Positions 4,979 through 57,855 of a stretch of 64,000 nt of DNA are shown in pieces; position 1 is the first letter of the stretch; each line of letters starts with the position of its first letter. The stretch lies in assembly GCA_963665525.1 (NCBI GenBank), contig OY762280.1:705451-769450 (forward strand). Direction: 5' to 3'. The position numbers and the translations under genes were made by a program. The DNA comes from Bacteroidales bacterium (GTDB lineage Bacteria > Bacteroidota > Bacteroidia > Bacteroidales > UBA12077). The notes beneath the pieces were generated by a model that was not told where the DNA came from, did not search any database, and saw only the letters and a program-made list of their open reading frames with translations.

Positions 4979-5133
4979 GCCTTTATATTTCTAGCAAAGA
5001 TGCCAAGACGCAAAGAAATTGTAAACTTTTTCTTATGGTATTTACAATCTGAATTTCTTTGGTTTTGTTATTTCTATGCATTAATTCAATTTTTTTGATC
5101 TGTTATCTATAAATCTAAATTCTAATATCTAAA

Positions 5134-6183: not shown

Positions 6184-6210
6184 TGTATGATGTTTTTGTA
6201 TGGTTGTATT

Positions 6211-11089: not shown

Positions 11090-11090
11090 T

Positions 11091-15451: not shown

Positions 15452-16786
15452 TTAAAATGATAAAGTAAAAGTCGTATTTGAATTTTGCTCGGATTGAACA
15501 GAAATATTACCGCCATGTAAATGTATTATTTGTTGGGCAAGGCTTAATCCAATGCCTGATCCATTCTCTTTGTTTGTATAAAAAGGTAGAAAAATTTTAT
15601 CCATTTCATTTTCTTCTATACCAAATCCATTATCTGTTATTGTAATACATGATTTGTTATCATAGTAAAAAGCTTTTAATACAATTCGCTTATCCTGAAC
15701 ATTTTTTAAGGCATGAATTGAATTCGTGATTAAGTTAATGATGATTTGTTCCAGCAAACTTTCATCGGCATTAATACTCATGCTAATAGGTTCAATTACA
15801 ATATCAAATTGTATATCTTGTAACTCAATTTCGTTTATTAGTAGTTTCTTTATACGACCAAATAAGTTATTCAACTTTATTTCTTTGATAACAGGTTGAG
15901 GAATCTTGGTAAGTTTCTTATAGTTCGTTACAAAATCAGTTAGATTAGAACTTCTTTTTTCGATTGCCTGAATACCTTCTAAAATATTTTCTAATTGAAT
16001 TTTATCAATGTTTTCATTCTTTAATTCATCTGATAATGTTTCATAAATAGTCGATGAAAGAGATTTTATAGGACTTATTGAGTTCATGATTTCATGTGAA
16101 ATTACACGAATGACTTCTTGCCATGTTTTCATCTCTTTTTCTTGCAACTCACTTTTTACATTATAGAAAGTATACAATTTGATTTCTTTATCCTTTATTT
16201 TAAAGTGAGTTAAATTTATTGAGATCGGAATATTCTCACCTTTAATATTGAATATGTGTACGAGCGAATTGTCAAGTGTAACTTTTTGAAGGATGTTTTC
16301 TAATGAAATGTGTAGTTGATTTATATGCTTAATATTCTGAATGTTTTGCTTAAAAATAGTATTGATAAATGAATTATGAAATTCTATATTTTTATCGTTA
16401 ATAGCTAAAACCCCAACATTAACACTTTCAAGCAAATATGAAAGATAATATTCATTAAATAACTTTTCTTTTTCGAGACTTTTATATTTGGATGATAGAT
16501 TGTTTGAAATGTTCTTAATTAATTCTTCATTAAGATTATAAGAGGTGTTGACTAATCTATCTTCTGCATCTTTTAATGTAATATTCTTTAAATAGTGAAT
16601 GATTTTCTGATTCTTTCGCTGTACATAATAGTACAATATGAATCCTTGTCCAATAAGTATAGCAATAAAATAGAAGGTAGTAAATTGTAAGTTTTCTTTT
16701 TGAGTGCTAAATGCAATTAAAAGACTAACCACAATAATTAGTATTATCTGAGTAATAAGACTTATTTCGAATTTCTTATATTCCAT
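15452..16786 (-). CDS. Sensor histidine kinase (module 1), two N-terminal TM helices with a very short outside loop
   Basis: 444 aa. TM1 ISLITQIILIIVVSLLIAFS, ~9-aa loop, TM2 TFYFIAILIGQGFILYYYV. H-box VISHEIMNSISPI, N-box INLITNSIHAL, G-boxes ITDNGFGI and GSGIGLSLAQQIIHLHGG. Confidence 0.9.
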   Translation of the reverse strand: MEYKKFEISLITQIILIIVVSLLIAFSTQKENLQFTTFYFIAILIGQGFILYYYVQRKNQKIIHYLKNITLKDAEDRLVNTSYNLNEELIKNISNNLSSKYKSLEKEKLFNEYYLSYLLESVNVGVLAINDKNIEFHNSFINTIFKQNIQNIKHINQLHISLENILQKVTLDNSLVHIFNIKGENIPISINLTHFKIKDKEIKLYTFYNVKSELQEKEMKTWQEVIRVISHEIMNSISPIKSLSSTIYETLSDELKNENIDKIQLENILEGIQAIEKRSSNLTDFVTNYKKLTKIPQPVIKEIKLNNLFGRIKKLLINEIELQDIQFDIVIEPISMSINADESLLEQIIINLITNSIHALKNVQDKRIVLKAFYYDNKSCITITDNGFGIEENEMDKIFLPFYTNKENGSGIGLSLAQQIIHLHGGNISVQSEQNSNTTFTLSF

Positions 16787-18140
16787 GTTTTTTCATTTTA
16801 CGATATAGAGTAGCTCTGGTAATACCAAGTTGGTTGGATGTTTCCGAAATATTATAATTAAACTTTCTAAGAGCATCCTGAATAATTCTTTTTTCGTTAG
16901 TGTCTAAATTAAAAGTACGTGTTTGAGAAGTTTCAGTGCTTAAGGCCTGATTAATTTGAATATCTTCTTGTTTAATGACATCGTTCTCACATAATATAAG
17001 TGCTTTTTCAATAGTATGCTCAAATTCTCTTATGTTTCCTGGCCAGTTATGCTTAATTAGTAGGTCAATTACATTTGGATAAATTTTAATATCTTCTTTT
17101 TGATATTTTCTTTTGTATTTCTCAAGAAAGAACGAAGTAAGCGCAGGTATATCTTCTTTTCTTTCTCTTAATGGAGGTAGTTCAATTTGGATGGTATTAA
17201 TTCGATAAAGGAGATCTTCCCTGAATTTTGATTGATTAATCATTTCGTATAATGGCATGTTCGTAGCACTTATAAGTCTTATGTTAACCGGAACAGGCTT
17301 ATTTGAACCTACTTTATAAATTTCACGATTTTGTAAAACAGTAAGTAATTTAGCTTGCTGCTCAATGGGTAAATTTCCAATTTCATCTAAGAATAGAGTA
17401 CCTTCCGAAGCTATCTCAAAACGGCCTGTTCGGTCCTTATTCGCACTGGTAAACGAACCTTTTAAATGTCCAAATAATTCACTTTCAATTAAGGATGAAG
17501 GAAAGGAGCTAATATCAACAGAAACAAAAATATCGTTGGCCCGATTAGATTGTTTATGAATTTCACGTGCAATGATTTCTTTCCCTGTTCCGTTTTCTCC
17601 CAGAATTAAAATATTCGTTTCTGTCTTAGCAACCTTCTGAATGGTTGAAAATACCTTTTGAATAGATGCAGATTCACCAACAAATAATCCATACGATTTT
17701 GAGATATCGTATTTTAGTTGTTGTTGTTTGTTTTTAAGCGTTTTTATTTCAATTTTAGACTGCTTTAATTTAACAGCATTTTGAATAGTGGCTAGAATTT
17801 TTTCATTATCCCAGGGTTTCTCGATAAAATCCATTGCACCTTCTTTTAGGGTTCGAACTGCGAGTTCCACATTGCCATAAGCAGTTAAAAATATAATGGA
17901 TGAATCGGGCGAGATTTCTTTGATACGCTTCATCCAGAAAATCCCTTCATTACAATTATTAATTCCTGAAGTAAAATTCATATCCAAAACAATTACATCA
18001 TAATCTTTCGATGAAACATTACTTGGGATCTGTTCCGGGTTACTTATTGTATCAATTGTTGAAAAGTGTTTTGATAAGAACATTTTAAGAGCCAGAAGAA
18101 CTTCTTTATTATCATCAACAATTAGAATATTTGCTTGCAT
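16776..18140 (-). CDS. Sigma-54-dependent response regulator (NtrC family bEBP), module 1
   Basis: 454 aa. Receiver (ILIVDDN...VIVLDMNF), AAA+ Walker A GENGTGKE, GAFTGA-type loop GSFTSA, Walker B LFLDEIG, C-terminal Fis-type HTH (LGITRATLYRKMKKHGI). 11-nt overlap with the HK start. Confidence 0.9.
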   Translation of the reverse strand: MQANILIVDDNKEVLLALKMFLSKHFSTIDTISNPEQIPSNVSSKDYDVIVLDMNFTSGINNCNEGIFWMKRIKEISPDSSIIFLTAYGNVELAVRTLKEGAMDFIEKPWDNEKILATIQNAVKLKQSKIEIKTLKNKQQQLKYDISKSYGLFVGESASIQKVFSTIQKVAKTETNILILGENGTGKEIIAREIHKQSNRANDIFVSVDISSFPSSLIESELFGHLKGSFTSANKDRTGRFEIASEGTLFLDEIGNLPIEQQAKLLTVLQNREIYKVGSNKPVPVNIRLISATNMPLYEMINQSKFREDLLYRINTIQIELPPLRERKEDIPALTSFFLEKYKRKYQKEDIKIYPNVIDLLIKHNWPGNIREFEHTIEKALILCENDVIKQEDIQINQALSTETSQTRTFNLDTNEKRIIQDALRKFNYNISETSNQLGITRATLYRKMKKHGI

Positions 18141-18152
18141 GTATTTATTTGG

Positions 18153-18169
18153 TGTTTAAAAACAATACA
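18153..18169. promoter_or_regulatory. TGT-N11-ACA dyad (candidate regulator site) in divergent region 1
   Basis: TGTTTAAAAACAATACA. The same TGT-N11-ACA spacing recurs in divergent regions 2 and 3. Confidence 0.3.
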
Positions 18170-18177
18170 CAAATGTA
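18170..18177 (-). promoter_or_regulatory. Bacteroidota-type -7 box (TAnnTTTG) for the RR1-HK1 operon
   Basis: Minus strand reads TACATTTG, 30 nt upstream of the RR1 ATG. A TTTG (-33-like) lies 20 nt further upstream (plus-strand CAAA at 18198-18201). Confidence 0.4.
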
Positions 18178-18254
18178 TTAATATTAAACATCAAAATCAA
18201 ATTAAATTTTAATAATAGTCATATAATCAATGATATATGATTTCGGAATAAGAT

Positions 18255-18271
18255 TGGCATACACCTAACTG
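18255..18271 (+). promoter_or_regulatory. Candidate sigma-54 -24/-12-like element upstream of FtsX permease 1
   Basis: TGGCATACACCTAACTG, 50 nt before the ATG. TGGCA matches the -24 box. The -12 GC is not canonical. Confidence 0.3.
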
Positions 18272-18304
18272 AAAAATTAGATTTATTCATTAAATTTATA
18301 GACC

Positions 18305-20692
18305 ATGTTTAGAAATTATTTAAAAATAGCTCAACGAAATATCTTAAAACGAAAAGTTTTTTCTTTAATCAACATCGTTGGTTTATCGGTTAGTATTGCT
18401 GTTAGTATTTTAATATTACTTTATGCTGTGCACGAATTATCATACGATAGTTATTATGATAATGTTGATGCTAAGTATCGTGTTGTTTCGCATGTAATAC
18501 ACGGTGAAGAAGAGTATACCAATAATGTATCGAATGGAACACTGGCAGGCGATATTTTAGAAATAATCCCTGGGGTTAAAAATGCTTTCCAGGTATATAT
18601 TGATTTTCCATATGTTCAGGTTGGTAATGAAACATATTTAGAAGACAATTATGATGTTTATTATGCCGGGGATGGAATATTTGATTTTTTTTCAGTAAAA
18701 TTCACTGAGGGGAATCCTGAAACGGCATTGAAAGAACCTTTTTCTATTGTTCTTACAGAGACCTATGCTCATAAATATTTTGGGGATTCATTAGTATTGG
18801 GTAAATCCTTATTGGTTAATTCAAAATTGGAATATAAAGTAACCGGAGTTGTAAAGGATTTACCTGAAAATACTCATTTTAAGTTTAATATCTTATTCTC
18901 CTTACCATCTCTTTTAAAGACTTATGGTTTAAATGATTATCATCCATTTAGAAATTCTTTTATAACTTATGTTGAATTCTCACACAATGAGAATATTGAA
19001 CAAGTTGAGAAAAAGATAACAGAAATTTCATTGAGTTATTTACCTCCTCAATTAAAAGAAATGATTACTGTTTGGAAAACTTTACAGCCAATAAAAGATA
19101 TTCATTTAAAATCTGATTTTGAAGATAAATACAAGGGAGGAAATATTAAAATTATCTATATTTTCTCATCCATTGCCATATTAATATTACTACTTGCATG
19201 TATTAATTATATTAACTTATCTACTGCCCAATATTCTTCAAGAACAAAAGAGGTTGCTATAAGAAAAACAACAGGAGCGAACAGGAGTAGTCTGGTTAAG
19301 CAATTTATTACTGAATCGGTTATAATAATATTACTAAGTTTAGCAACAGCAATCGTTATTGCCGAATTTTTCTTGCCAATATTTAATACAATTATAAATT
19401 TCCAATTAAAAATAGCATATTTCGAGAAATGGTATAATGTACTTCTTATTCTGGGAGTAGGATTTCTTGTAAGTTTGATTTCATCGCTATATCCTGCATT
19501 TTATCTTTCGTCATTTAAAGTTGTTGATGTATTTAAAATGAAAATTCGTATTGGTAAAGGAAATATTAACATTCGAAGAGTTCTGGTTGTATTTCAATTT
19601 ACTGTGACTGTTTTTTTGATTATTAGTACTTTAATAATTAGTAAGCAGCTTAATTATGTGAATAATAAAGATTTGGGATTTAATAAAAATAACTTAATGA
19701 CTGTTAGGCTAAATAATAAACAGGCTATTAGTCAATTAGAAGTATTAAAAAATGAAATTGAAAATCTTTCTTGTGTTCATTCATCTACAGTTAGTTCTAA
19801 TTTTCCAAGTGGTACAGCTAGTTGGGAGAATATATTTGAATTTGAAGGCCATGAAAGTGAGCAATTTGATGTAATGCCATTATTAGATGTTGATTATAAT
19901 TTCTTAGAAACAATGCAAATTAGTTTATCTAGAGGGCGAAATTTTTCTACAGAATTTTTTACTGATTCAAATGCAGTATTAGTTAATGAAACTTTGGTTA
20001 AATTAATGAATTGGAAAGAACCAATAGGGAAGAAAATTATTGAGAGAGTTGAAGATAAGACTTATACATATCACGTGATTGGAATTTTTAGGGATTATCA
20101 TAAGGAATCGTTACATTCTGCTGTGAAGCCAATGATGCTTAGGTTAGCGCAGAGAAAAAGATATTTGTTGGTTAGATTGACTCATGATTTTTCAGAAGAA
20201 AATATTCAAGAGATAAAAGCAGTTTGGGATAAGTTTTGTCCAGGCAAACCTTTTCAAAATATTTTCATTGACGATGCCTTTGATAGGCTATATCAATCAG
20301 AAAGAAATTTATCAAATATTTTTATTTACTTTTCGGTTATTGCAATAATCATAGCATGTTTGGGACTATTAGGTTTAATAACTTTGTTTACTCAACAAAA
20401 AACAAAAGAAATATCTATTAGAAAAATACTTGGTGCAAAAGCTTCTAATATAACATTGATATTAACCAAGGAGTTTATTATACTTCAACTTATTGCTAAT
20501 GTAATAGCAATGCCTGTTGCTTATTTTGCTATGAACAAATGGCTGGCTGGTTTTACTTTTCATGTTAAAATTGGCTGGCTTGTTTTTGTATTAGGAGCCG
20601 TGATAACAGCTATTATTTCTATTGCAGCAATTAGTATTCAAACTTATAAAGCTGCAGTTTCTAATCCATCAGAAAACCTTCGTTACGAGTAG
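18305..20692 (+). CDS. MacB/FtsX-family permease 1, double FtsX module (about 8 TM, two periplasmic domains), no ATPase domain
   Basis: 795 aa. Family-typical N-terminus (YLKIAQRNILKRKVFSLINIVGLSVSIAV...ELSYDSYY). TM1 + ~240-aa loop + 3 TM, repeated once. C-terminus NPSENLRYE. Confidence 0.85.
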   Translation: MFRNYLKIAQRNILKRKVFSLINIVGLSVSIAVSILILLYAVHELSYDSYYDNVDAKYRVVSHVIHGEEEYTNNVSNGTLAGDILEIIPGVKNAFQVYIDFPYVQVGNETYLEDNYDVYYAGDGIFDFFSVKFTEGNPETALKEPFSIVLTETYAHKYFGDSLVLGKSLLVNSKLEYKVTGVVKDLPENTHFKFNILFSLPSLLKTYGLNDYHPFRNSFITYVEFSHNENIEQVEKKITEISLSYLPPQLKEMITVWKTLQPIKDIHLKSDFEDKYKGGNIKIIYIFSSIAILILLLACINYINLSTAQYSSRTKEVAIRKTTGANRSSLVKQFITESVIIILLSLATAIVIAEFFLPIFNTIINFQLKIAYFEKWYNVLLILGVGFLVSLISSLYPAFYLSSFKVVDVFKMKIRIGKGNINIRRVLVVFQFTVTVFLIISTLIISKQLNYVNNKDLGFNKNNLMTVRLNNKQAISQLEVLKNEIENLSCVHSSTVSSNFPSGTASWENIFEFEGHESEQFDVMPLLDVDYNFLETMQISLSRGRNFSTEFFTDSNAVLVNETLVKLMNWKEPIGKKIIERVEDKTYTYHVIGIFRDYHKESLHSAVKPMMLRLAQRKRYLLVRLTHDFSEENIQEIKAVWDKFCPGKPFQNIFIDDAFDRLYQSERNLSNIFIYFSVIAIIIACLGLLGLITLFTQQKTKEISIRKILGAKASNITLILTKEFIILQLIANVIAMPVAYFAMNKWLAGFTFHVKIGWLVFVLGAVITAIISIAAISIQTYKAAVSNPSENLRYE

Positions 20693-20693
20693 T

Positions 20694-22046
20694 TTAAAAT
20701 GATAAAGTAAAGGTCGTATTTGAATTTTGCTCCGATTGAACAGAAATACTACCTCCATGTAATCGCATAATTTGTTGAGCAAGGCTTAGTCCAATTCCTG
20801 AGCCTTGTTCTTTCGTTGTAAAAAACGGAATAAATATCTGATCCATAATATCTTTTGGAATTCCTGCGCCATTATCGCTAATTTCTAAATGGGGTTTACC
20901 TTTATGATTAATAAATGCTCTTAAGTTAATTTGCCCAGATTTTCCTGAAACTGCATCTACCGAGTTTTTTATCAGATTAATAAAAGTTTGTTCAATGTAT
21001 CTTTTATCAGCATTAATCTCCAGATCAATTGGTAAAATACTGATGTTAAGCTTAATTTCTTTTGTCTCAAGTTTTTCTTTTAACAAGAGTTCCAGGTTAT
21101 AAAAAAGCTCGGCAACTTTAAATCTCTCAAAGTTCATTGTTTTAAGAGAAGAAATACTACGGTAGTTATTTACAAAATCAACCAATCCTTCACCTCGTTT
21201 AGTTATGATGTGTAGACCTTCGGTTGTTTTTGAAATGATATGATCTGTAATTTCGGTTTTTGTGATAGCCCTGTTTTGTTCTTTTATAAAAAGCTTTTCT
21301 AATGAATTGGATAAAGAGGTAATAGGAGATATGGTATTGTTAATTTCGTGTGTTAGTATTCGAATTAATTTATGCCACGATTCGATTTCTTTTTCACTAA
21401 GTTCTGTTTCTATATTTTGAAACGAAACTAGTTTTAACTGATCATTCTTGATTTTAAATTCTGAAATTTTTATGGACAGTGGTAATGCTTTTGTTTGGCC
21501 TTTAATCATCATTGATTTCTCATCTCCAGAATGACTGTTCTTTAAAAAATGATAGAAATTAGGATGAATATTTTCAATTTCTTCAATCTGGTGTATCTTT
21601 TTTATATTAAGAAGCTCGGTAGCACTTTTATTAATTAAATCAACATGACCCGAACTATTAATTGTAATAATTCCTGTTTGTGCATGCTCTATAACCGTTT
21701 TATAATATGACTGTTGGATTTCTTTTAATTCGGTTATATTAAATAACTGATCTCTGATATAGTTAATATTATTTTGAAATTCTTGATTGATATAAGGAAA
21801 TACTTTATCGTGAAATGCAAACGAAGCATCTTGAGTTTTTAGTGCAGCAAAAAAGTTTACAATTTCGCGGTTAAAACGATTGATATATTTTAAAAGCAAA
21901 CCAATTTGCACGATTAGTAAAGCGATCAGGCTGAGTACTGTAAAAAGTTTTTCTGGATTACGAAAAAACGGAACAATGCTAATGCATGTTACAAGGATGA
22001 GAATTATCCTTACCAGTATGTTGATATAAAAATTTTTACTTAACAC
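20694..22046 (-). CDS. Sensor histidine kinase (module 2), short-loop 2-TM type
   Basis: 450 aa with a GTG start. TM1 NILVRIILILVTCISIVPFF, loop RNPEKLFT, TM2 VLSLIALLIVQIGLLLKYI. H-box ILTHEINNTISPI, G-boxes ISDNGAGIP and GSGIGLSLAQQIMRLHGG. Confidence 0.9.
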   Translation of the reverse strand: MLSKNFYINILVRIILILVTCISIVPFFRNPEKLFTVLSLIALLIVQIGLLLKYINRFNREIVNFFAALKTQDASFAFHDKVFPYINQEFQNNINYIRDQLFNITELKEIQQSYYKTVIEHAQTGIITINSSGHVDLINKSATELLNIKKIHQIEEIENIHPNFYHFLKNSHSGDEKSMMIKGQTKALPLSIKISEFKIKNDQLKLVSFQNIETELSEKEIESWHKLIRILTHEINNTISPITSLSNSLEKLFIKEQNRAITKTEITDHIISKTTEGLHIITKRGEGLVDFVNNYRSISSLKTMNFERFKVAELFYNLELLLKEKLETKEIKLNISILPIDLEINADKRYIEQTFINLIKNSVDAVSGKSGQINLRAFINHKGKPHLEISDNGAGIPKDIMDQIFIPFFTTKEQGSGIGLSLAQQIMRLHGGSISVQSEQNSNTTFTLSF

Positions 22047-22048
22047 GA

Positions 22049-23410
22049 TTATAAATTGTATTTTTTAATCTTATTATATAATGTTTGACGTGTTAATCCT
22101 AATTCTTTGGCAGCATCTATCATCTTACCGGAATTATTAGCTAAAGCTCTTTGTATAGCTGTTTTTTCAATTTCTTCAAATTTTAACGGCCATTCCGATG
22201 ATGTTTGCACAGATTTAAGCATAAAATCGCTGGGCTGTAATGTATTGCCAGCACACAAGATAACTGCTTTTTCTATCGTATGCTTAAGTTCGCGGATATT
22301 GCCAGGCCAAGCGTAGGATTGCAATGTATTTATTGCATTATGACTTAATTTCAAGAAAGGCTTTTCGTATTTTGTTGTGAATATCTTTAAATAATATTCG
22401 GCGATTGGAATTATATCATCTTCTCTTTGTCGTAGTGGTGGAAGTTCAATTTGTAACGTATTTATTCGATAATATAAATCTTCACGAAATAAACCTTCCT
22501 GAATGAGCTTGTCAAGATTCTTATTAGTTGCTGAAATTAATCTTACATCAATTTCTGTTGATGAGTTGCTTCCTATTGGAGTTATAGTTTTATTTTGCAG
22601 AGCAGTTAGCATTTTGGCTTGTAGTGAGGTAGGGATATTCCCAATTTCGTCTAAGAATAAAGTGCCTTTATTGGCAATTTCAAATCTGCCTGTACGGTCT
22701 TCTTTTGCATCGGTAAAAGATCCTTTTTTATGTCCAAAGAGCTCACTTTCAAATAATGTTTCAGGAATAGATCCTAAATCTATGCCTATCATAGGGTTAG
22801 ATTTTCGCTTCGATTTTCTATGGATTTCTTTGGCGATAAGTTCTTTACCTGTTCCGTTCTCGCCCAGTATAAGAACATTTACTTCGGTTCCTGCAACTTT
22901 CTCAATCAGATCAAAAACCTCTTTCATTTTAGATGAGAATCCAATGATCTTTTCGGTGGGTTTATTTATTTCATTGCTTAATGTATCTTTTTCTTTCGAA
23001 AGTTTCTTAATCTCTAGTTGCGATTCCCTGATCTTTAAAGCAGACCTTAAGGTGCTTATTAGTTTTTCGTTATTCCATGGTTTGATTACAAAATCAGTAG
23101 CTCCTTCTTTAATGGCTTTAACTGCTAAATCAACATCTCCATAAGCTGTTATGAAAATTACAATCGCATTTTCGTCTGCTTTAAGTATTTCATGTAACCA
23201 AAATATTCCTTCATTTCCGGTATTTAATCCTGCCGAGAAATTCATATCAAGAAGAATAACATCATACTCTTCTTTTTTGTATTCAGATAAAAGAGAATTG
23301 GGATTAGATATTGTTTTGACGACCTCAAATTCGTTATCTAATAATATTTTTAATGAACGTAAGATGTTTTTATCATCATCTACAATTAATATCTTACCTT
23401 TAGATAGCAT
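22049..23410 (-). CDS. Sigma-54-dependent response regulator (NtrC family), module 2
   Basis: 453 aa. Receiver (ILIVDDD...VILLDMNF), GENGTGKE, GSFTDA, LFLDEIG, HTH LGLTRQTLYNKIKKYNL. Confidence 0.9.
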   Translation of the reverse strand: MLSKGKILIVDDDKNILRSLKILLDNEFEVVKTISNPNSLLSEYKKEEYDVILLDMNFSAGLNTGNEGIFWLHEILKADENAIVIFITAYGDVDLAVKAIKEGATDFVIKPWNNEKLISTLRSALKIRESQLEIKKLSKEKDTLSNEINKPTEKIIGFSSKMKEVFDLIEKVAGTEVNVLILGENGTGKELIAKEIHRKSKRKSNPMIGIDLGSIPETLFESELFGHKKGSFTDAKEDRTGRFEIANKGTLFLDEIGNIPTSLQAKMLTALQNKTITPIGSNSSTEIDVRLISATNKNLDKLIQEGLFREDLYYRINTLQIELPPLRQREDDIIPIAEYYLKIFTTKYEKPFLKLSHNAINTLQSYAWPGNIRELKHTIEKAVILCAGNTLQPSDFMLKSVQTSSEWPLKFEEIEKTAIQRALANNSGKMIDAAKELGLTRQTLYNKIKKYNL

Positions 23411-23455
23411 TATATACTTAAAAATTGAATTGAACGTAAAATAAATTTACCTAAA

Positions 23456-23472
23456 TGTAAAAATATTTTACA
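23456..23472. promoter_or_regulatory. Inverted repeat TGTAAAA-ATA-TTTTACA (TGT-N11-ACA) in divergent region 2
   Basis: 7-nt perfect arms with a 3-nt spacer, about 65 nt upstream of the candidate -24/-12 element at 23537. Confidence 0.35.
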
Positions 23473-23536
23473 TTTTAAAAAAGTTTAATTAATTGAGTGA
23501 GGTTTAAAGCGCAGATTATCAATGAATAAATTATGT

Positions 23537-23553
23537 TGGCATTTTTATTGGCA
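23537..23553 (+). promoter_or_regulatory. Candidate sigma-54 -24/-12-like element upstream of FtsX permease 2
   Basis: TGGCATTTTTATTGGCA, 52 nt before the ATG. TGGCA is at -24. TTGGC stands in place of TTGC, so the GC is offset by 1 nt. Confidence 0.35.
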
Positions 23554-23588
23554 TATTGAGTAAAAATGTTAAATAAAAATTCAAAATT

Positions 23589-26006: not shown

Positions 26007-27371
26007 TTAAAACGATAAAATAAAAGTTGTAGTGTAATTAGAATCGGAAGAAGATACAACATAGATATTACCATTGTGTAATCGCATAATTTGACGAGCA
26101 AGGCTTAACCCTATTCCGGAGCCTTGCTCTTTTGTTGTAAAAAATGGCATAAAAATTTCGTCGATAATTTCCTGGTTAATCCCTTTCCCGTTATCACTGA
26201 TTGTAATTAGTAATTGATTATTTTTATCTTTTGTTGAACTCATCTTTATCGAATTGGCATCTGCTTCAAGCGCATTTTTAATTAGATTAATAATGATTTG
26301 TTCTATTTGATTTTTATCAATAAGAATGTGCTCCGTTAAATGATCTTCAGGTATCTTAAATTCAATTTTTTTATTTTCGAATTCGTTTTTCCAGAATGAT
26401 TTTATGTTTTCAAATAAATCTTTAATGATGATCTTTTCAAAGTTAGGTTTTGGTAATTTTGAAATTGATCTGAATTTATCGACAAATTGTTGCAATCCAA
26501 TATTCCTTTCTTTTACTATCTTTAATCCTGATGAAATATCACTGATGATCTCGTTATTTAAATGATCTATCTGAACTATTTGGTTATTGTCAGGGTTGGT
26601 GATTAACTCATTTAAAGTATCTATGGTTGATGAAATAGGCCCGATAGAGTTCATTATTTCGTGACGCAGAGTATGCACCAGTTTTTGCCACGATTCCAGT
26701 TCTTTTTCATCTAATTCATTTTTAATATCATGTATAGAAACAATTCTTAATTTCTCATCTTGGGTTTTAAAATCTGCCGAACGAAGTATTAATTGCAGCA
26801 ACTCTTTGTTCGCATTATTCGAAAGTGTAATTTTAATTAATTTGTGTTCTGTAGGAGAAAGTGTTTTTAAAATCTCTGCAAAATTAGGGTGAAAAACATT
26901 GAGTTCTTTAATATTTACAATATTGTTAAGCTTGAATAGATCTTTTAAAGCTTTATTAGCAAGTTTTACACTTCCTTTTTCATTAAAACTTAACAAACCA
27001 ACATTGGCTAATTCTGTTATGGTTTGGAAGTACTGATTTTCGCGAGCGCTTTTTTCTTTCAGTTTTAATATTTGATTATTTACAGTTTGTAATCTTCGAC
27101 TGAGTCGCATATAATTTATATGCTGAAACTCATTGGTTAATAAAATTGAAGAATCATCGTATTTGAGTGAATCAAAAAAAGCAATTAAATCACGATTTAG
27201 GTAATTTAATCTTCTAATTAGCAATATAACCTGTATGATTAATGCTCCAACTATATTTATATTGATAATAATATCTTGAAACTTTTTATGAGCAAATGGT
27301 AGTAAAAAGCAAGTTGCAGCAATTAATATAACTCTGATAATAATATTATAATAAAGGTTTTTAAATATCAT
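26007..27371 (-). CDS. Sensor histidine kinase (module 3), short-loop 2-TM type
   Basis: The ORF track extends to 27407. I prefer the Met at 27371 (MIFKNLYYNIIIRVIL), which aligns with the HK4 start MIYKRFYFNIIIRIIL and recreates the 11-nt ATG...TAA overlap seen in modules 1 and 4. H-box TLRHEIMNSIGPI, G-boxes ISDNGKGI and GSGIGLSLARQIMRLHNG. Confidence 0.85.
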   Translation of the reverse strand: MIFKNLYYNIIIRVILIAATCFLLPFAHKKFQDIIININIVGALIIQVILLIRRLNYLNRDLIAFFDSLKYDDSSILLTNEFQHINYMRLSRRLQTVNNQILKLKEKSARENQYFQTITELANVGLLSFNEKGSVKLANKALKDLFKLNNIVNIKELNVFHPNFAEILKTLSPTEHKLIKITLSNNANKELLQLILRSADFKTQDEKLRIVSIHDIKNELDEKELESWQKLVHTLRHEIMNSIGPISSTIDTLNELITNPDNNQIVQIDHLNNEIISDISSGLKIVKERNIGLQQFVDKFRSISKLPKPNFEKIIIKDLFENIKSFWKNEFENKKIEFKIPEDHLTEHILIDKNQIEQIIINLIKNALEADANSIKMSSTKDKNNQLLITISDNGKGINQEIIDEIFMPFFTTKEQGSGIGLSLARQIMRLHNGNIYVVSSSDSNYTTTFILSF

Positions 27372-28734
27372 ATCTCTCAATTTTTCTGTATAAAGTCTGA
27401 CGACCAATATTTAATTCTTTCGCTGTTTCACTTATGTTCCAGTTATTTCTCTGGAGTGCATTTCTTATAATGATTTTTTCTCCATCTTCGAGCGAAATAA
27501 CTTTGTTAAGCTCATCACTCGTTGATACCTGTTTTTCGAAAAAGAAATCTTCAGTAGTTAATGTGTTTTCATTACATAGAATAACTCCTTTTTCTATGGT
27601 ATGTCTTAACTCGCGAATGTTTCCTGGCCATGAGTAAGTAATTATTTTTTCAATGGCTTTATTATTGATTTTTAGTCCTGGTTTATTATATCTTTTTGAA
27701 AATAAATCTAAAAAATGATTGGTAAGAATAAGAATATCTTCTTTTCTTTCCCTTAGTGGTGGTAGATATATTTGAATGGTATTAATTCGATATAACAAAT
27801 CTTCTCTGAAAAGATTTTCTACAATTAATTGATCTATATTTTTATTTGTAGCTGATATGAGCCTAACGTCGAGAGGTATTTTTGTATTAGAACCAACTTT
27901 AGAAATTTCTTTATTTTGTAATGCAGTTAAAAGTTTGGCTTGCATCGAAAATGATAGATTACCTATTTCGTCTAGAAATAGGGTTCCGCCCGAAGCTGCT
28001 TCAAATTTACCTGTTCTATCTTCTTTGGCATCAGTAAAAGCACCTTTGCAATGGCCAAAAAGCTCACTTTCAAAAAGAGTTTCTGTTAGCGAAGCCATGT
28101 CGATATTCATAAAAATCTCATTATTTCTTGACGAGAGCTGATGAATTCTTCTGGCTATAAGTTCTTTTCCTGTACCATTTTCTCCTAAAATTAAAACATT
28201 TGCATTGGTTTTGGCAACTTTGCTTACAGTACTTAAAACCTTATCCATTGCCGTTGAATTTCCTATTATAAAATCAAAATCCTGATTAATATTTTGTTTT
28301 AGGATGTGCTCTTTATTTTCAAGTTCTTTTACTTTTAATTTTGATTTCCGTAACTCAAAAGCTGCATTTAAAGTTGCCAGTAGTTTTTGATTATTCCATG
28401 GCTTTTCAATAAAATCAAATCCACCATTTTTTATGGCTTTTACGGCTAGTTCTGTATCTGCATATGCAGTTATTAAAATTGTTATGATTTCAGGATCTAT
28501 TCTTGAGATTTCATTTAACCAAAACAAGCCTTCGTTACCTGTATTTATTCCTGCTGAAAAATTCATATCCAGAAGAACAATATCAACATGATTTGATCTA
28601 ATGGTATGTTGAAGATTGCTAGGATTACTAATTGTTAAAACTTCGGTAAACTTGTATTTTAAAAATAATTTAAGTGAATTAAGAACACTTTGATTATCAT
28701 CCACAATAAGTATGGTTCCTTCTCTAATATCCAT
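27361..28734 (-). CDS. Sigma-54-dependent response regulator (NtrC family), module 3
   Basis: 457 aa. ILIVDDN...IVLLDMNF, GENGTGKE, GAFTDA, LFLDEIG, HTH LNIGRQTLYRKIERYDI. Confidence 0.9.
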   Translation of the reverse strand: MDIREGTILIVDDNQSVLNSLKLFLKYKFTEVLTISNPSNLQHTIRSNHVDIVLLDMNFSAGINTGNEGLFWLNEISRIDPEIITILITAYADTELAVKAIKNGGFDFIEKPWNNQKLLATLNAAFELRKSKLKVKELENKEHILKQNINQDFDFIIGNSTAMDKVLSTVSKVAKTNANVLILGENGTGKELIARRIHQLSSRNNEIFMNIDMASLTETLFESELFGHCKGAFTDAKEDRTGKFEAASGGTLFLDEIGNLSFSMQAKLLTALQNKEISKVGSNTKIPLDVRLISATNKNIDQLIVENLFREDLLYRINTIQIYLPPLRERKEDILILTNHFLDLFSKRYNKPGLKINNKAIEKIITYSWPGNIRELRHTIEKGVILCNENTLTTEDFFFEKQVSTSDELNKVISLEDGEKIIIRNALQRNNWNISETAKELNIGRQTLYRKIERYDI

Positions 28735-28753
28735 AATAAATACTTTTGTAAAT

Positions 28754-28761
28754 CAAAGCTA
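28754..28761 (-). promoter_or_regulatory. Bacteroidota-type -7 box (TAnnTTTG) with -33 TTTG for the RR3-HK3 operon
   Basis: Minus strand reads TAGCTTTG, 20 nt upstream of the RR3 ATG. A TTTG lies 19 nt further upstream (plus-strand CAAA at 28781-28784). Confidence 0.45.
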
Positions 28762-28790
28762 TTGTTTATTTTCATTGATTCAAAATATGT

Positions 28791-28807
28791 TGTATGATTT
28801 TGGAACA
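28791..28807. promoter_or_regulatory. TGT-N11-ACA dyad in divergent region 3
   Basis: TGTATGATTTTGGAACA. It overlaps a direct repeat ATGATTTTGGA (28794-28804 and 28816-28826). Confidence 0.3.
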
Positions 28808-28893
28808 CTTGGTGGATGATTTTGGATCATAGTATGTAAAAGATTAAATTTAAAAATTCATTAAGTAATTGATTGTAAGCTTGAAAAAGTTTT

Positions 28894-28910
28894 TGGTATA
28901 AGATTAGATT
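28894..28910 (+). promoter_or_regulatory. Candidate sigma-54 -24/-12-like element upstream of FtsX permease 3
   Basis: TGGTATAAGATTAGATT, 45 nt before the ATG. GG is present at -24, but the -12 box is weak. Confidence 0.25.
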
Positions 28911-28938
28911 TAATCATCTAAACCGAAAATTACTAGTT

Positions 28939-31308
28939 ATGTTTATAAAGAATATTATTTTATCGATACGAATTATGTTAAGAAGCAAACTGTTTTCGTT
29001 TCTTAATATTGTTGGATTAGCTTTTGGATTGGCTTGTACAATTCTATTGTATTTATGGGTTACCGATGAATTATCATATAATACTTACCACGAAAAAGTC
29101 GATCGTATATTTATTGTTCAGCACTGGCAACATTATGGCGACGAAGATTATCATGTTTGGGTGGGACCTGGTCCTATGGCTGCAGCATTTAAAGAAAAAT
29201 ATCCAGAGGTTGAGGCAATTGCGCGATATAGTAGAGCTTATAATGGTTTAGTAAGTTATAAAGATAAAAAATTAACACAAGAGGTAGGTGCTGCTGATCC
29301 TGAAATTCTTGATATTTATACCTGCCCGTTTGTACAAGGAAGTAAGGAGGATTTTGCTTCAGGACTAGATAATATAATTATTTCAGAAGAGATTGCTCAA
29401 CAATATTTTGGAGATGATGACCCCATTGGAAAAACATTGGTTGTTGATGGTAAATTTTCTTTTATCGTACAAGGAGTATTTAAGAATTTTCCAGATAATG
29501 TAAGTTTTGATTTTGATATTTTAATCCTCTTTGAAAAACTTAAAGATTTTGGACAGGATTTAGAGTCTTGGGGTACGAATTGGTGTTTTAATCTTGCTTT
29601 GCTTCACGAAGGAGTAGACTACAAAGAATTTGAGAAGAAAGCAGTTACCTTTCTTGATGAGATGAAGGAAAATCCGGAGGACCGTAAAAACGAAGTATTT
29701 TTAAATCCTTTAGCTAGGGTGTACTTGCATGACATTGAAGGTGGCGGTCGCATTGAAATGGTTCGTCTTTTTGGTATCATTGCTGCTTTTATTCTAATTA
29801 TTGCTTGTTTTAATTATACCAATTTGGCTACAGCTAGAGCTGAGAACAGGGCAAAAGAAATAGCGGTTCGAAAAGTGATGTCTGCTTCAAAAGGCAGGTT
29901 AATTAAACAATTTTTAGGTGAGTCTTTAATTTTTACATTTTTAGCTCTTAATTTTTCGCTCATCATTGTTCAGCTTTTACTGCCAACATTTAATGAAATG
30001 GCTAATAAAGAGCTATACATGGATTATTCAAATATAACAATCATATTAAGTTTAATATTTATATGGTTGTTTACAAGTTTAGCAGCAGGAATTTATCCTG
30101 CTTTTGTATTATCATCATTTAAAGTAGTAAGCACATTAAAAGGATCCAAAGGAAATAGTTCTCGAGGTGGAGTTTTTAGAAAAGTGCTTGTAGTTATTCA
30201 GTTTTCGTTATCTATTGGGTTAATAATATGTACTTTAGTTGTTAATAAGCAAATAGAGTTTCTAAAGCAGAAAGATTTAAAGTTTGATAAAAACAACATG
30301 GTGTATGTTCAAATTCAAGGAAAAATGATGGATAGGTATGATATTATTAAACAGGGATTGTTAAATAATCCTAACATTCTTAGCCTTACAAGAACATCTC
30401 ATCAATCTCCATTTATGGTAGGTAGTAATGGTGGTGGATGGCAATGGGAAGGGAAAGATCCAGATGTTAGTCCATTAGTATCAGCGATGGTTGCAGATGA
30501 GAATTTTATTAAAACATTTAAAATTAAGCTTTTCGAAGGTAGATATTTTTCTCCCGAATTTAGTTCAGATACTGCTAGTGCCAGCACAAAGGTATACAAT
30601 ATCGTAATTAATAAAATGTTTGCCGATATTATTGGCGATAATGCGGTTAATAAGATTTTGCATCGCGGCGGGACATATAAATTCCCTGTAATTGGAATTA
30701 TTGATGATTTTGCATATTTACCGGCAAATCAAATGAACAGGCCGTTAGCTATTTATTTTTATGAAGGTGAATATCGTTATATTTTTATTCGGGTAACTGG
30801 AAACGAAATAGCAGAAACAATTAAATATATTCAGTCAGTATTTGAGGAATATAACCCTGGTTTTGTATTCGATTATGGTTTCTTAGCTGAAGGATATGAA
30901 ACTTTATATAGTGATGAAGAACGTGTTAGTAAGATTATGAGATCGTTTACCATTTTTGCAATTTTAATCTCATGTTTAGGATTATTTGGTTTGGCGGCCT
31001 TTTCGGCACAAAAGAAAACTAAAGAAATTGGAATAAGAAAAGCTTTAGGAGCTCCAGTTATGAACATTATCTTATTGCTTTCGAAAGAAATGACAAAGTG
31101 GGTATTGATTTCTAATATTATTGCCTGGCCTGTTGCATATTTTCTAATGAATAAACTTTTAGATAATTATCCATATCACTACGAAATGACCATCTGGATA
31201 TTTTTAATAGCTGGAGTAACTGCATTTGGTTTATCAATCTTAACAGTCATTTATCAAGCCTTGGTTGCATCAGTTAGAAATCCAGTCGATAGCTTAAGGT
31301 ATGAATAA
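28939..31308 (+). CDS. MacB/FtsX-family permease 3, double FtsX module, no ATPase domain
   Basis: 789 aa. N-terminus IILSIRIMLRSKLFSFLNIVGLAFGLACTILLYLWVTDELSYNTYH, two TM1-loop-3TM halves, C-terminus NPVDSLRYE. Confidence 0.85.
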   Translation: MFIKNIILSIRIMLRSKLFSFLNIVGLAFGLACTILLYLWVTDELSYNTYHEKVDRIFIVQHWQHYGDEDYHVWVGPGPMAAAFKEKYPEVEAIARYSRAYNGLVSYKDKKLTQEVGAADPEILDIYTCPFVQGSKEDFASGLDNIIISEEIAQQYFGDDDPIGKTLVVDGKFSFIVQGVFKNFPDNVSFDFDILILFEKLKDFGQDLESWGTNWCFNLALLHEGVDYKEFEKKAVTFLDEMKENPEDRKNEVFLNPLARVYLHDIEGGGRIEMVRLFGIIAAFILIIACFNYTNLATARAENRAKEIAVRKVMSASKGRLIKQFLGESLIFTFLALNFSLIIVQLLLPTFNEMANKELYMDYSNITIILSLIFIWLFTSLAAGIYPAFVLSSFKVVSTLKGSKGNSSRGGVFRKVLVVIQFSLSIGLIICTLVVNKQIEFLKQKDLKFDKNNMVYVQIQGKMMDRYDIIKQGLLNNPNILSLTRTSHQSPFMVGSNGGGWQWEGKDPDVSPLVSAMVADENFIKTFKIKLFEGRYFSPEFSSDTASASTKVYNIVINKMFADIIGDNAVNKILHRGGTYKFPVIGIIDDFAYLPANQMNRPLAIYFYEGEYRYIFIRVTGNEIAETIKYIQSVFEEYNPGFVFDYGFLAEGYETLYSDEERVSKIMRSFTIFAILISCLGLFGLAAFSAQKKTKEIGIRKALGAPVMNIILLLSKEMTKWVLISNIIAWPVAYFLMNKLLDNYPYHYEMTIWIFLIAGVTAFGLSILTVIYQALVASVRNPVDSLRYE

Positions 31309-31309
31309 A

Positions 31310-32659
31310 TTAAAATTGTAAAGAAAAACTTGTTTCTGTTTCGCTAGACTGAGCAGAAATACTACCACCATGCAATCGCATTATTTGACGAGCAAGGCTT
31401 AATCCAATTCCGGAGCCTTGCTCTTTTGTTGTAAAGAATGGCATAAATATTTGGTCTATGATTTCGTCAGGTATGCCAGGTCCATTATCTACTACTGATA
31501 TTTCGGTTCTTTTATCTGCGTTCACATGTGCAATCATCTTTATTTCTTTATGATCAGTATGAATAATGGATTCGATTGCATTCTTTAAAAGATTAATTAA
31601 TATTTGCTCAATAAGTTTTTTATCAGCTTCAATCATAATTGCTTCTGGATTTGTATTTGTTGCAATTTTGATATTATTCTTATCTATAGAATCTTGAAAA
31701 AGTAAAATAATCTTATGAAAAAGAGGGGTGAGTTCAATTTTACTAATTTTTAAAGCTTGTATTTTTGTCAAACTTCTGTATTTCTCTACAAATTCTTGAA
31801 GTCCGGCACTTCTATCTTCAATTAAGGAAGTGTTTATGAGTGCATCTTTAATTTGATCATTATCTAAATTTTCAATAGTCCCCGGTTCTCCATCAATAGT
31901 TAGACACTTATTTATTGCAAGGGTTAGATTAGAAATAGGAGTAATGGAGTTCATGATTTCGTGAGTTAAAATACGAATTAGTTTTTGCCACGAAATCAAT
32001 TCGTTTTCTTCCAGTTCATTTTTAACATCCTGAAATGAGATAAGTTTTAGATGATCATTTTCGAATTTAAATTTTGTTGAACGAACTAATATTTGAGTAA
32101 ACTGATTGTTTATTTTTAAACGTATAACCTTTTGATCTCCCGGGTTTATATTATCTAATTCCTTATGTAAATCAGGAATTGTAGATTTAATTTTGCCTAG
32201 AGAATTAACTGATTCCAGGCAAAGTAATTTTTTTAGTGCTTGATTAGTATGTATTATATTTCCGGTTTCATTAACTGTCAATATTCCTATAGGGATATGT
32301 TCGACAACAAATTCGAAATATTTGGAGCTTTTTTCTGATTTAATTCTAGATTGTCCAATTAAATCAGCCACTTCGTTTAAGGTAGAAGCTAATTCCTTAA
32401 ATGCACCTTTATTATCGTTAAATTTTAATTGTGTTGATGAACCTTCATCTTTCAGTGCAGCAAAGAAACGAGATAGTTCAAAATTTGTTTTATTAATATA
32501 ATTGATAAGCGAAATCACTTGTATTACAAGTAATGAACTTAAAGTGATAATGGTATATATTTTATCAAGCTCACGAAAACTAAATGATAACCACAGACAA
32601 TTAAGCAAAAGCAAAATTATTCTGATAATGATATTAAAATAGAATCTTTTATAAATCAT
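31310..32659 (-). CDS. Sensor histidine kinase (module 4), short-loop 2-TM type
   Basis: 449 aa. TM1 FNIIIRIILLLLNCLWLSFSF, loop RELDKIYT, TM2 IITLSSLLVIQVISLINYI. H-box ILTHEIMNSITPI, G-boxes VVDNGPGIP and GSGIGLSLARQIMRLHGG. Confidence 0.9.
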   Translation of the reverse strand: MIYKRFYFNIIIRIILLLLNCLWLSFSFRELDKIYTIITLSSLLVIQVISLINYINKTNFELSRFFAALKDEGSSTQLKFNDNKGAFKELASTLNEVADLIGQSRIKSEKSSKYFEFVVEHIPIGILTVNETGNIIHTNQALKKLLCLESVNSLGKIKSTIPDLHKELDNINPGDQKVIRLKINNQFTQILVRSTKFKFENDHLKLISFQDVKNELEENELISWQKLIRILTHEIMNSITPISNLTLAINKCLTIDGEPGTIENLDNDQIKDALINTSLIEDRSAGLQEFVEKYRSLTKIQALKISKIELTPLFHKIILLFQDSIDKNNIKIATNTNPEAIMIEADKKLIEQILINLLKNAIESIIHTDHKEIKMIAHVNADKRTEISVVDNGPGIPDEIIDQIFMPFFTTKEQGSGIGLSLARQIMRLHGGSISAQSSETETSFSLQF

Positions 32660-34050: not shown

Positions 34051-34064
34051 AATTAAAAAATAAA

Positions 34065-34105
34065 ATTGTATAAAATATGGCACCTATTGTCGTATTTTAT
34101 ACAAT
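34065..34105. promoter_or_regulatory. 13-nt perfect inverted repeat ATTGTATAAAATA-N15-TATTTTATACAAT in divergent region 4
   Basis: Arms at 34065-34077 and 34093-34105. The spacer contains TGGCAC (34078-34083). It lies 64-104 nt upstream of the candidate -24/-12 element at 34169. Confidence 0.4.
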
Positions 34106-34168
34106 TCTTAATGTGAAAGTATTAGTATATTGTAGGTAAGTTGCATATATATAATATTTTAAGTTGTT

Positions 34169-34185
34169 TGGTATAATGTTGGCAA
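34169..34185 (+). promoter_or_regulatory. Candidate sigma-54 -24/-12 element upstream of FtsX permease 4
   Basis: TGGTATAATGTTGGCAA, 37 nt before the ATG. The GG and GC dinucleotides are at canonical -24/-12 spacing. Confidence 0.35.
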
Positions 34186-57839: not shown

Positions 57840-57855
57840 ATTTTTAGCGATTTAA

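Follow-up and report, generated by a model that had tools for sequence, protein, structure and literature searches.

The 64-kb window examined here, 64,000 nucleotides from a Bacteroidales bacterium (contig OY762280.1 of assembly GCA_963665525.1, positions 705,451 to 769,450), carries a tandem array of four cassettes, alike in design, that extends from 15.4 to 36.6 kb. In each, a response regulator (RR) gene and then a histidine kinase (HK) gene lie on the minus strand, and a permease (PERM) gene diverges from them on the plus strand. These cassettes are a real and largely undescribed variant of the transporter-linked two-component modules. On the evidence of their alignments, the kinases are members of one uniform, sizeable family, whose N-terminal module, a transmembrane (TM) helical hairpin with an adjoining juxtamembrane segment, is conserved and family-specific. 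The regulators, once phosphorylated, very probably activate sigma-54 transcription of the permease gene of their own cassette. We also think it somewhat probable that the kinases receive their input through the membrane-proximal module; that the stimulus comes from the MacB-type transporter itself, in a need-based induction like that of Bce modules, is suggested by analogy and is clearly less likely.

Architecture of the kinases

The kinase genes occupy positions 15452-16786 (HK1, 444 residues), 20694-22046 (HK2, 450 residues), 26007-27371 (HK3, 454 residues) and 31310-32659 (HK4, 449 residues), all on the minus strand, just where the initial annotation had placed them. HK3 is counted from the ATG at 27371, which the family alignment makes the most likely start, rather than from the upstream TTG at 27407. 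The TM hairpin, which in HK1 covers approximately residues 8 to 55, is encoded by nt 16622-16786 in HK1, 21882-22046 in HK2, 27207-27371 in HK3 and 32495-32659 in HK4, and it is followed by a linker, a PAS-like region, and the DHp and CA domains. The open reading frames, their translations and Pfam matches support these assignments, with HATPase_c found at E = 6e-22 in HK1. In Kyte-Doolittle scans, the first ~55 residues of each kinase show two hydrophobic peaks and no more, and after residue 80 no further segment exceeds 1.11.

The AlphaFold2 model of HK2, built on an alignment of 81 homologues, has a mean predicted local distance difference test (pLDDT) score of 82. Its N-terminus is modelled as a helix at residues 4-28, a two-residue turn at 29-30, and an unbroken helix at 31-70. 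Beyond the hairpin come a poorly ordered connector (71-87), a stalk helix (88-121), a PAS fold (122-211, pLDDT 85-89), the DHp helices (212-299, including His233), and then the CA domain. The charges read from the sequence, K4 and R13 ahead of TM1 and K53, R57, and R60 past TM2, fit an N-in/C-in topology with a cytoplasmic kinase. By the geometry of the modelled hairpin, R13 and Q47 should lie at equal depth near the cytoplasmic leaflet.

The initial annotation had described two N-terminal hydrophobic helices separated by 8-12 residues. The helices are seen in both the hydropathy scans and the model, whereas the exposed stretch between them is shorter, about 2-8 residues. The loop strings quoted there do occur in the sequences, but the one given for HK3, HKKFQDIIININ, extends into TM2. 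The loops of the four paralogues differ (RNPEK, TQKEN, HKKFQD, and RELDK), and the loop varies even between close orthologues. The claim that the kinases have no extracytoplasmic sensor domain agrees with hydropathy, the family alignment, and the AlphaFold2 model, in none of which a substantial periplasmic domain is seen. The linker or PAS-like region and the HisKA/HATPase core described there are likewise present: weak PAS_8/PAS_9 matches cover residues ~115-212, the H-box THEIMNSI contains His233, and HATPase_c is matched at E ~1e-22.

About 160 cytoplasmic residues, the PAS fold included, separate TM2 from the DHp domain. Pfam PAS_8 or PAS is matched in 33-39 of the 81 family members, and Pfam HAMP in none of the 81 at E <= 0.1. 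A HAMP domain at residues 54-104, suggested by helix spacing in the model and by some database names, was dropped for this reason, and these residues are left as a juxtamembrane segment of unassigned type. Its more proximal part, residues 54-87 (nt 21786-21887 in HK2), matches no Pfam family, HAMP included, and carries the motif N-R-x-L-x-x-F-[FL]-x-[AS]-[IL]-[KR]-x-x-D-[FAS]-[ST]. The label "NtrY" found in some source annotations was not adopted either, since the kinase scores best in NCBIfam against AtoS, PnpS, and ZraS and falls far short of the cutoff each time. An intramembrane-sensing kinase is one whose input part consists of TM helices and short loops; strictly defined, it also has no cytoplasmic sensor domain. 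The kinases here have the TM-only, short-loop input part, and their PAS fold runs counter to the strict definition.

A family of hairpin kinases

When one genome per species was scanned, more than 576 relatives were recovered, and the best 80 were analysed as loci (numbered with the prefix L below). These come from Bacteroidales, Marinilabiliales, Flavobacteriaceae, Ignavibacteria, Cloacimonadota, and Latescibacterota. The two N-terminal peaks are present in 73 of 79 family members, and the N-termini of 75 homologues from the 80 genomic loci align nearly gap-free. R13, Q47, and N59 are each at least 90% conserved in the 81-sequence alignment. Residues 1-121, used as the query of an exhaustive profile search, gave at least 1135 cluster representatives (at 50% identity) at E <= 1e-3; all full-length matches to the module are 435-462 residues long, and the module is N-terminal every time.

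In our literature search, neither these hairpin kinases nor any Bce-like sensing by Bacteroidota turned out to have been described, and the one related report was that of sigma-54 promoter enrichment at COG0577 permeases (PMC12316311). Three ingredients are already known: two-component systems linked to transporters, kinases that lack periplasmic domains, and, from a computational analysis of 2025, sigma-54 control of FtsX permeases. What appears new relative to the searchable literature is the kinase family with its N-terminal module, its systematic pairing, in Bacteroidota and allied phyla, with MacB-type pumps, and the four private orphan-permease cassettes.

Probable sigma-54 control of the permease genes

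The regulator genes, all on the minus strand, lie at 16776-18140 (RR1), 22049-23410 (RR2), 27361-28734 (RR3), and 32649-34022 (RR4). The initial annotation had called the regulators NtrC/sigma-54 types, and Pfam bears this out with the order REC, Sigma54_activat, AAA_lid_14, HTH_8; in RR1, Sigma54_activat is matched at E = 6e-66, together with Response_reg and HTH_8, and the translation of RR2 has the same architecture. Their GAFTGA-type loops read GSFTSA, GSFTDA, or GAFTDA, so that the features expected of NtrC-family enhancer-binding proteins are found. RR3 has orthologues in L004 and L049 at 68-77% identity. The span between regulator and permease genes is 165-205 bp, and it contains sigma-54 -24/-12-like elements that face the transporter genes.

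About 71 of the 80 related loci have upstream sequence long enough to judge. In 31 of these 71, the strand that encodes the divergent pump carries the pattern TGGCAY-N5-WWGH, 120-280 bp from the RR start, and in none of them does the RR strand carry it; the background is 0.014 per region, or about one locus expected. The signal appeared only in this position- and strand-aware comparison across loci. In the window, each permease ATG is preceded, at a distance of 37-52 nt, by a near-match in which TGG[CT]AT is kept and the -12 part is degenerate or shifted. The four -24/-12-like elements, all on the plus strand, are TGGCATACACCTAACT at 18255-18270 (50 nt 5' of the PERM1 ATG; its -12 part is weak, and its position and strand fit the family motif), TGGCATTTTTATTGGC at 23537-23552 (52 nt from the PERM2 ATG; kept in L001, L002, and L008), TGGTATAAGATTAGAT at 28894-28909 (45 nt from the PERM3 ATG; its counterpart in L004 is TGGCATGAGTTTGG), and TGGTATAATGTTGGCA at 34169-34184 (37 nt from the PERM4 ATG).

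Candidate regulator-binding sites lie between these elements and the regulator genes in cassettes 2 to 4. In cassette 2, the inverted repeat AAATGTAAAA-ATA-TTTTACATTT at 23453-23475, a candidate upstream activating sequence for RR2, is kept between the corresponding genes of L001, L002, and L008; this repeat and the promoter element stand out as conserved islands across the four orthologous intergenic regions, and in L001 and L002 the promoter has the canonical GG-N10-GC spacing. In cassette 3, a direct repeat, two copies of TGATTTTGGA at 28790-28828, is a candidate RR3 site and is kept in L004 and L049, as part of a conserved footprint with the TGGCAT element. Cassette 4 has a perfect 14-bp inverted repeat, AATTGTATAAAATA-N15-TATTTTATACAATT, at 34064-34106, a candidate RR4 site read from the sequence beyond the positions that the initial annotation covered. 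Given these conserved footprints, each regulator appears to have a private operator and is predicted to drive its own permease gene.

Two results weigh against this assignment. The -12 parts of the four promoters in the window are degenerate, and a plain consensus search of the window (TGGCAC-N5-TTGC, with up to two mismatches) gave 28 hits against 25.5 expected, which is no enrichment; such a search is uninformative taken alone. On the other side, an independent comparative analysis of 2025 reported that, in Bacteroidia, sigma-54 promoters are over-represented upstream of the genes for COG0577 FtsX permeases (PMC12316311), and flavobacterial sigma-54 uses typical -24/-12 elements (PMC9723704).

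The permeases and the related loci

The permease genes, on the plus strand, are PERM1 (18305-20692), PERM2 (23589-26006), PERM3 (28939-31308), and PERM4 (34206-36569, again beyond the initially annotated part), and they encode proteins of 787-805 residues. Each has two MacB_PCD and two FtsX domains in Pfam, and eight hydropathy peaks in the order 1+3+1+3 around two periplasmic domains of ~240 residues. The proposal of an 8-TM double-FtsX protein, set against the 10 TM helices of BceB (PMC10314905), is thus upheld. These are the FtsX bundle and MacB periplasmic core of a type VII, or MacB-type, permease; MacB is among the matches in the PDB, and for PERM2 the nearest solved relatives are 3is6, a putative permease domain, and MacB. 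The best NCBIfam match is the acidobacterial duplicated orphan permease, ADOP (TIGR03434), at 271-276 bits (271 for PERM1) against a cutoff of 622.3 bits, with DarB second. With scores so far below the cutoff, the permeases are relatives of ADOP rather than members.

Neighbouring open reading frames in the 80 related loci were classified by BLAST, Pfam, and locally built hidden Markov models. Genes of a MacB-type tripartite pump diverge from the RR-HK operon in 59 of the 80, so that the reported linkage of a short-loop kinase with an FtsX/MacB-type transporter extends from the window to several phyla. The pump set comprises a TolC-like outer-membrane efflux protein (OEP), an HlyD-type adaptor, an ATPase of ~230 residues whose top scores are DarD, MacB, and LolD, and a duplicated FtsX permease of ~800 residues; in most loci the adaptor gene adjoins the RR gene. 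The loci L047, L048, and L076, from Zobellia and Flagellimonas isolates, have the complete OEP-MFP-ABC-PERM set. Direct adjacency of regulator and permease genes is found in a Bacteroidales subset (L001-L004, L008, L034, and L049). The PERM-RR-HK units of this subset are orthologous to cassette 2 or 3 as whole cassettes, with identities of 57-69% for HK, 68-77% for RR, and 58-72% for PERM. Seven other Bacteroidales loci (L009, L014, L020, L029, L031, L043, and L059) have RR-HK and HlyD-ATPase-TolC genes and no permease gene, and no FtsX protein is detected within these loci even at E < 10. Taken with the permease-only cassettes of the window, they suggest that different genomes encode and regulate the parts of the pump separately.

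Comparison with known systems

The resemblance to BceRS-BceAB, and also to PsdRS-AB and GraXSR-VraFG, lies in the pairing of a two-TM kinase lacking an extracytoplasmic domain with a type VII (FtsX-domain) ATP-binding cassette (ABC) transporter, which in Bce modules the kinase induces. Like Bce modules, too, the cassettes occur as several diverged paralogues per genome, and their transporters have large extracytoplasmic domains; BceB has one large extracellular domain, and the 8-TM permeases here have two MacB_PCD domains. The differences are considerable. BceS is a TM-HAMP-DHp-CA protein of 334 residues, whereas the kinases here have 444-454 residues with an added PAS fold and no Pfam HAMP, so that the BceS-type shape first attributed to them does not hold. 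The Bce regulator is of the OmpR type, in contrast to the NtrC/sigma-54 regulators here, and Bce modules co-encode the BceA ATPase, for which the cassettes have no counterpart gene. The hosts are diderm Bacteroidota, unlike the Firmicutes that carry Bce, and HlyD and TolC partners are present in most relatives. Flux sensing, finally, in which signalling needs the transporter with its ATP hydrolysis and the kinase is complexed with the permease, has been demonstrated for Bce, and is here a hypothesis by analogy.

Structural comparison points the same way. A profile search of the PDB with the kinase returned ThkA, ZraS, and FixL first, and BceS (8g3a_D) only over residues 305-451, the CA domain, at E = 4.8e-10. 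A fold search returned WalK, VicK, YF1, and ThkA, all with PAS or LOV upstream of DHp-CA. BceB is absent from the PDB matches of the permease at E <= 0.01. By sequence, then, the cassettes are not members of the Bce family.

With MacAB-TolC and DarBCD, the cassettes share the MacB_PCD and FtsX permease, DarB having a matching duplicated layout of ~780 residues, and the related loci carry DarD/MacB/LolD-type ATPases together with HlyD and TolC-like genes. Unlike those systems, the cassettes encode unfused, duplicated permeases that are orphans, no ATPase, adaptor, or outer-membrane gene being included. We know of no dedicated hairpin kinase or sigma-54 system for MacAB or DarBCD. ADOP is the best full-length match and is likewise a duplicated FtsX orphan with many paralogues per genome; to our knowledge, ADOP genes have not been described with NtrC-type two-component systems. 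In the kinases, the cytoplasmic order of linker, PAS, DHp, and CA is that of WalK/VicK, ThkA, and the ZraS/AtoS type, which lack the conserved N-terminal hairpin and juxtamembrane module; ZraS and AtoS have extracytoplasmic sensor domains. PilS, a kinase with six TM helices, senses pilin and not a transporter, unlike what is considered here. The PilS-PilR pair is nevertheless a precedent for an NtrC-type sigma-54 system whose kinase reads an inner-membrane protein, PilA, by intramembrane contacts and controls its gene (PMC6058289).

Source of the input signal

We propose that each cassette would be a self-contained induction circuit. The kinase is held in the membrane by its helical hairpin, with essentially no periplasmic loop, and the stimulus would enter through the hairpin and the juxtamembrane segment rather than from the periplasm or mainly through the PAS fold. 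The phosphorylated regulator would then bind its own upstream repeats and activate, through sigma-54, the 8-TM MacB-type permease gene of its cassette. The likeliest origin of the stimulus might be the cognate MacB-type transporter, through its conformation or its state of transport, or else the substrate of that transporter embedded in the membrane, in which case permease synthesis would be raised by need, which is the logic of the Bce module achieved with unrelated parts. This explanation as a whole, transporter-derived input included, is offered tentatively.

The division of conservation along the kinase bears on the point of entry. The juxtamembrane segment (residues 54-87) has the highest identity in the protein within the two orthologue groups, 0.75 and 0.92, and is among the least conserved parts between paralogues, at 0.30. 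The PAS domain has the lowest identity within the same groups, 0.55 and 0.66, and 0.26-0.30 between paralogues. A segment constant in orthologues and divergent in paralogues, next to a PAS domain that is the least kept, suggests a cassette-specific function close to the membrane.

A link to the permease was sought with a distance-matrix co-variation (mirror-tree) test on 31 cassettes, in which RR divergence was controlled. Only for the TM hairpin, among the kinase regions, is the partial correlation with the permease consistently positive: the partial Pearson coefficient is 0.38-0.39, reached in none of 500 permutations, and the partial Spearman coefficient is 0.15 (8 of 300). The kinase core and the permease periplasmic domains give 0.20, in the Pearson test only. 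The co-variation of hairpin and permease is thus in the predicted direction and is suggestive only. The paralogous cassettes are nearly equidistant, which makes the topology of a paralogue tree uninformative, and a check of tree congruence was therefore dropped. In the BceAB-S structure, the four-helix TM bundle of BceS docks through lipids against TM1-4 at the N-terminus of BceB (PMC10314905). Since the duplicated permeases here contain FtsX-type four-helix bundles, a comparable docking surface for the kinase may exist.

Several observations tell against this explanation. The initial annotation had reasoned that a kinase of this kind cannot bind a periplasmic ligand itself; that it cannot sense by itself does not follow, because a PAS fold stands between TM2 and the DHp domain, making cytoplasmic input possible. 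The co-variation signal shrinks under ranks, and partial Mantel tests overstate significance for related sequences. The conserved polar residues at the cytoplasmic boundary could just hold the kinase dimer bundle together, by analogy with Glu8, Arg9, Arg56, and Glu60, which stabilise the four-helix bundle of the BceS dimer (PMC10314905). Flux sensing would need a MacB-type ATPase, and no MacB/LolD/BceA-type ATPase is encoded within the window; the ATPase, and any HlyD or TolC partners, must accordingly be encoded outside it. The seven loci lacking a permease gene imply, moreover, that the constant partner of the two-component system is the pump operon as its target and not the permease specifically.

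These permease-less loci agree with a transporter-independent input, and the PAS fold offers one. On that account it would bind a cytoplasmic ligand (a pump substrate that has entered, or a metabolic or redox cue), the hairpin would only tether the kinase, and the permease would be purely output. The confidently modelled fold, its recognition by Pfam in many family members, and the best fold matches, HAMP/PAS-DHp-CA kinases such as WalK, VicK, YF1, and ThkA, are all consistent with this, and the low PAS identity between paralogues is as expected if each cassette had a different ligand. The same domain is, however, the least conserved within orthologues, where the juxtamembrane segment is the most; N139 is the sole invariant residue in the PAS region, in which no cofactor-binding signature was seen in the family alignment; and an in-register hairpin with near-invariant R13, Q47, and N59 over at least 1135 clusters would be left unexplained. 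We consider PAS sensing rather unlikely, though to be taken seriously.

The hairpin, or the 5-8 exposed residues of its loop, might instead detect membrane-active compounds or a perturbed bilayer directly, the permease being only an induced defence. GraS and SaeS serve as models for short-loop sensing, LiaS and DesK for sensing of the membrane state. Such a role agrees with the topology and with the polar positions conserved within the membrane, loci without a permease gene are compatible with it, and the paralogue-specific loops could tune specificity; the signalling of GraS hinges on a single loop residue (PMC10581149), and a linker peptide tunes the activity of the SaeS kinase (PMC4388633). 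Yet the loop is unconserved among close orthologues and is a two-residue turn in the model, and a general membrane stress does not explain four separate, diverged cassettes with private repeats, which makes direct membrane sensing improbable in our estimation. A docking partner other than the permease seems more improbable still. Here the hairpin would contact the single TM helix of the HlyD-type adaptor, the ATPase, or an unlinked membrane protein, and the permease-only cassettes would be derived, with their partners encoded elsewhere. The adaptor gene does adjoin the RR gene in most related loci, where a DarD/MacB-type ATPase is also present, and the seven permease-less loci retain adaptor, ATPase, and TolC-like genes. 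In partial Spearman tests, however, the divergence of the hairpin gives -0.05 against the ATPase and only 0.10 against the adaptor, and the cassettes of the window and their orthologues keep only the permease beside the two-component system.

Gene arrangement in the cassettes

RR and HK are organised as an operon, and in cassettes 1, 3, and 4 the end of the RR gene overlaps the start of the HK gene by 11 nt (16776-16786, 27361-27371, and 32649-32659), and the same overlap is found in most related loci (around 6001-6011). That it is kept family-wide suggests translational coupling conserved across the family. Pairwise identities among the four cassettes are 32-39% for HK, 49-56% for RR, and 31-38% for PERM, values that mark the cassettes as old paralogues.

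The stop codon of each of the first three permease genes abuts the convergent kinase stop of the next cassette, 0-1 nt apart (20692/20694, 26006/26007, and 31308/31310). This leaves no space for a terminator, and induced permease transcripts could therefore run antisense into the neighbouring HK-RR operon. The layout is not conserved, the gaps being 79-370 nt in the related loci L002 and L008. Terminator-like stems with T-runs do occur on the plus strand at 20777-20810, 26118-26130, and 31412-31424, 85-112 nt beyond the PERM1 to PERM3 stops, where they lie antisense to the codons of the conserved kinase G2 box (TTKEQGSG). A terminator scan gave 7 terminator-like sites against 7.5 in shuffled sequence, showing no enrichment; since the count equals the shuffle expectation, the stems may be a by-product of the coding sequence.

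Other genes in the window

Two more duplicated MacB_PCD and FtsX permeases are encoded at 38658-41042 and 45903-48317, with no adjacent two-component system, bringing the orphan permease paralogues of the window to six. A TGGCAT element lies 110 nt upstream of the former. Interleaved with these two genes, at 36714-38432 and 41216-45763, are genes for a protein sorted by the type IX secretion system (Por_Secre_tail), an ankyrin-repeat protein of 560 residues, and three consecutive PD40/WD40-like beta-propeller proteins.

At 7739-11999 and 54219-58740 there are two pairs, each consisting of a DrrA/GldA-type (ABC-2) ATPase and a protein of more than 1100 residues. The large proteins have no NCBIfam match, and one of them carries a Golvesin_C domain. 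In L001 and L004 the first of these ATPases is conserved next to the cassettes, with 88-90% identity. These are the only two ABC ATPases of the window, and both were rejected as FtsX partners, being of the DrrA/GldA ABC-2 type. Upstream, at 1901-7728 on the minus strand, lies a complete resistance-nodulation-division efflux operon with an AcrB-type pump, an HlyD-type adaptor, and a TolC-like OEP.

Significance

Transporter-coupled flux sensing has so far been a speciality of Firmicutes, tied to BceS and BceB. If the coupling considered here is true, the same logic would have evolved independently in diderm bacteria with unrelated parts, namely a loop-less kinase, an NtrC/sigma-54 regulator, and MacB-type pumps. 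It is tempting to go further, although this is speculative and we rate it as improbable at present, and to see in the family of at least 1135 clusters an independently arisen diderm counterpart of Bce. In such a counterpart, the hairpin PAS kinase would be complexed with a MacB-type permease, would read its transport activity, and would drive sigma-54-dependent synthesis of that permease according to need, and the four private cassettes would re-equip one shared ATPase, adaptor, and TolC set on demand with different substrate-specific permeases.

Should the coupling fail, what remains is the definition of a kinase family, so far uncharacterised, whose N-terminal module is conserved, together with concrete promoter and operator predictions for four paralogous circuits. 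Bacteroidota encode many orphan duplicated FtsX permeases, and the finding would give a handle on their substrates and regulation.

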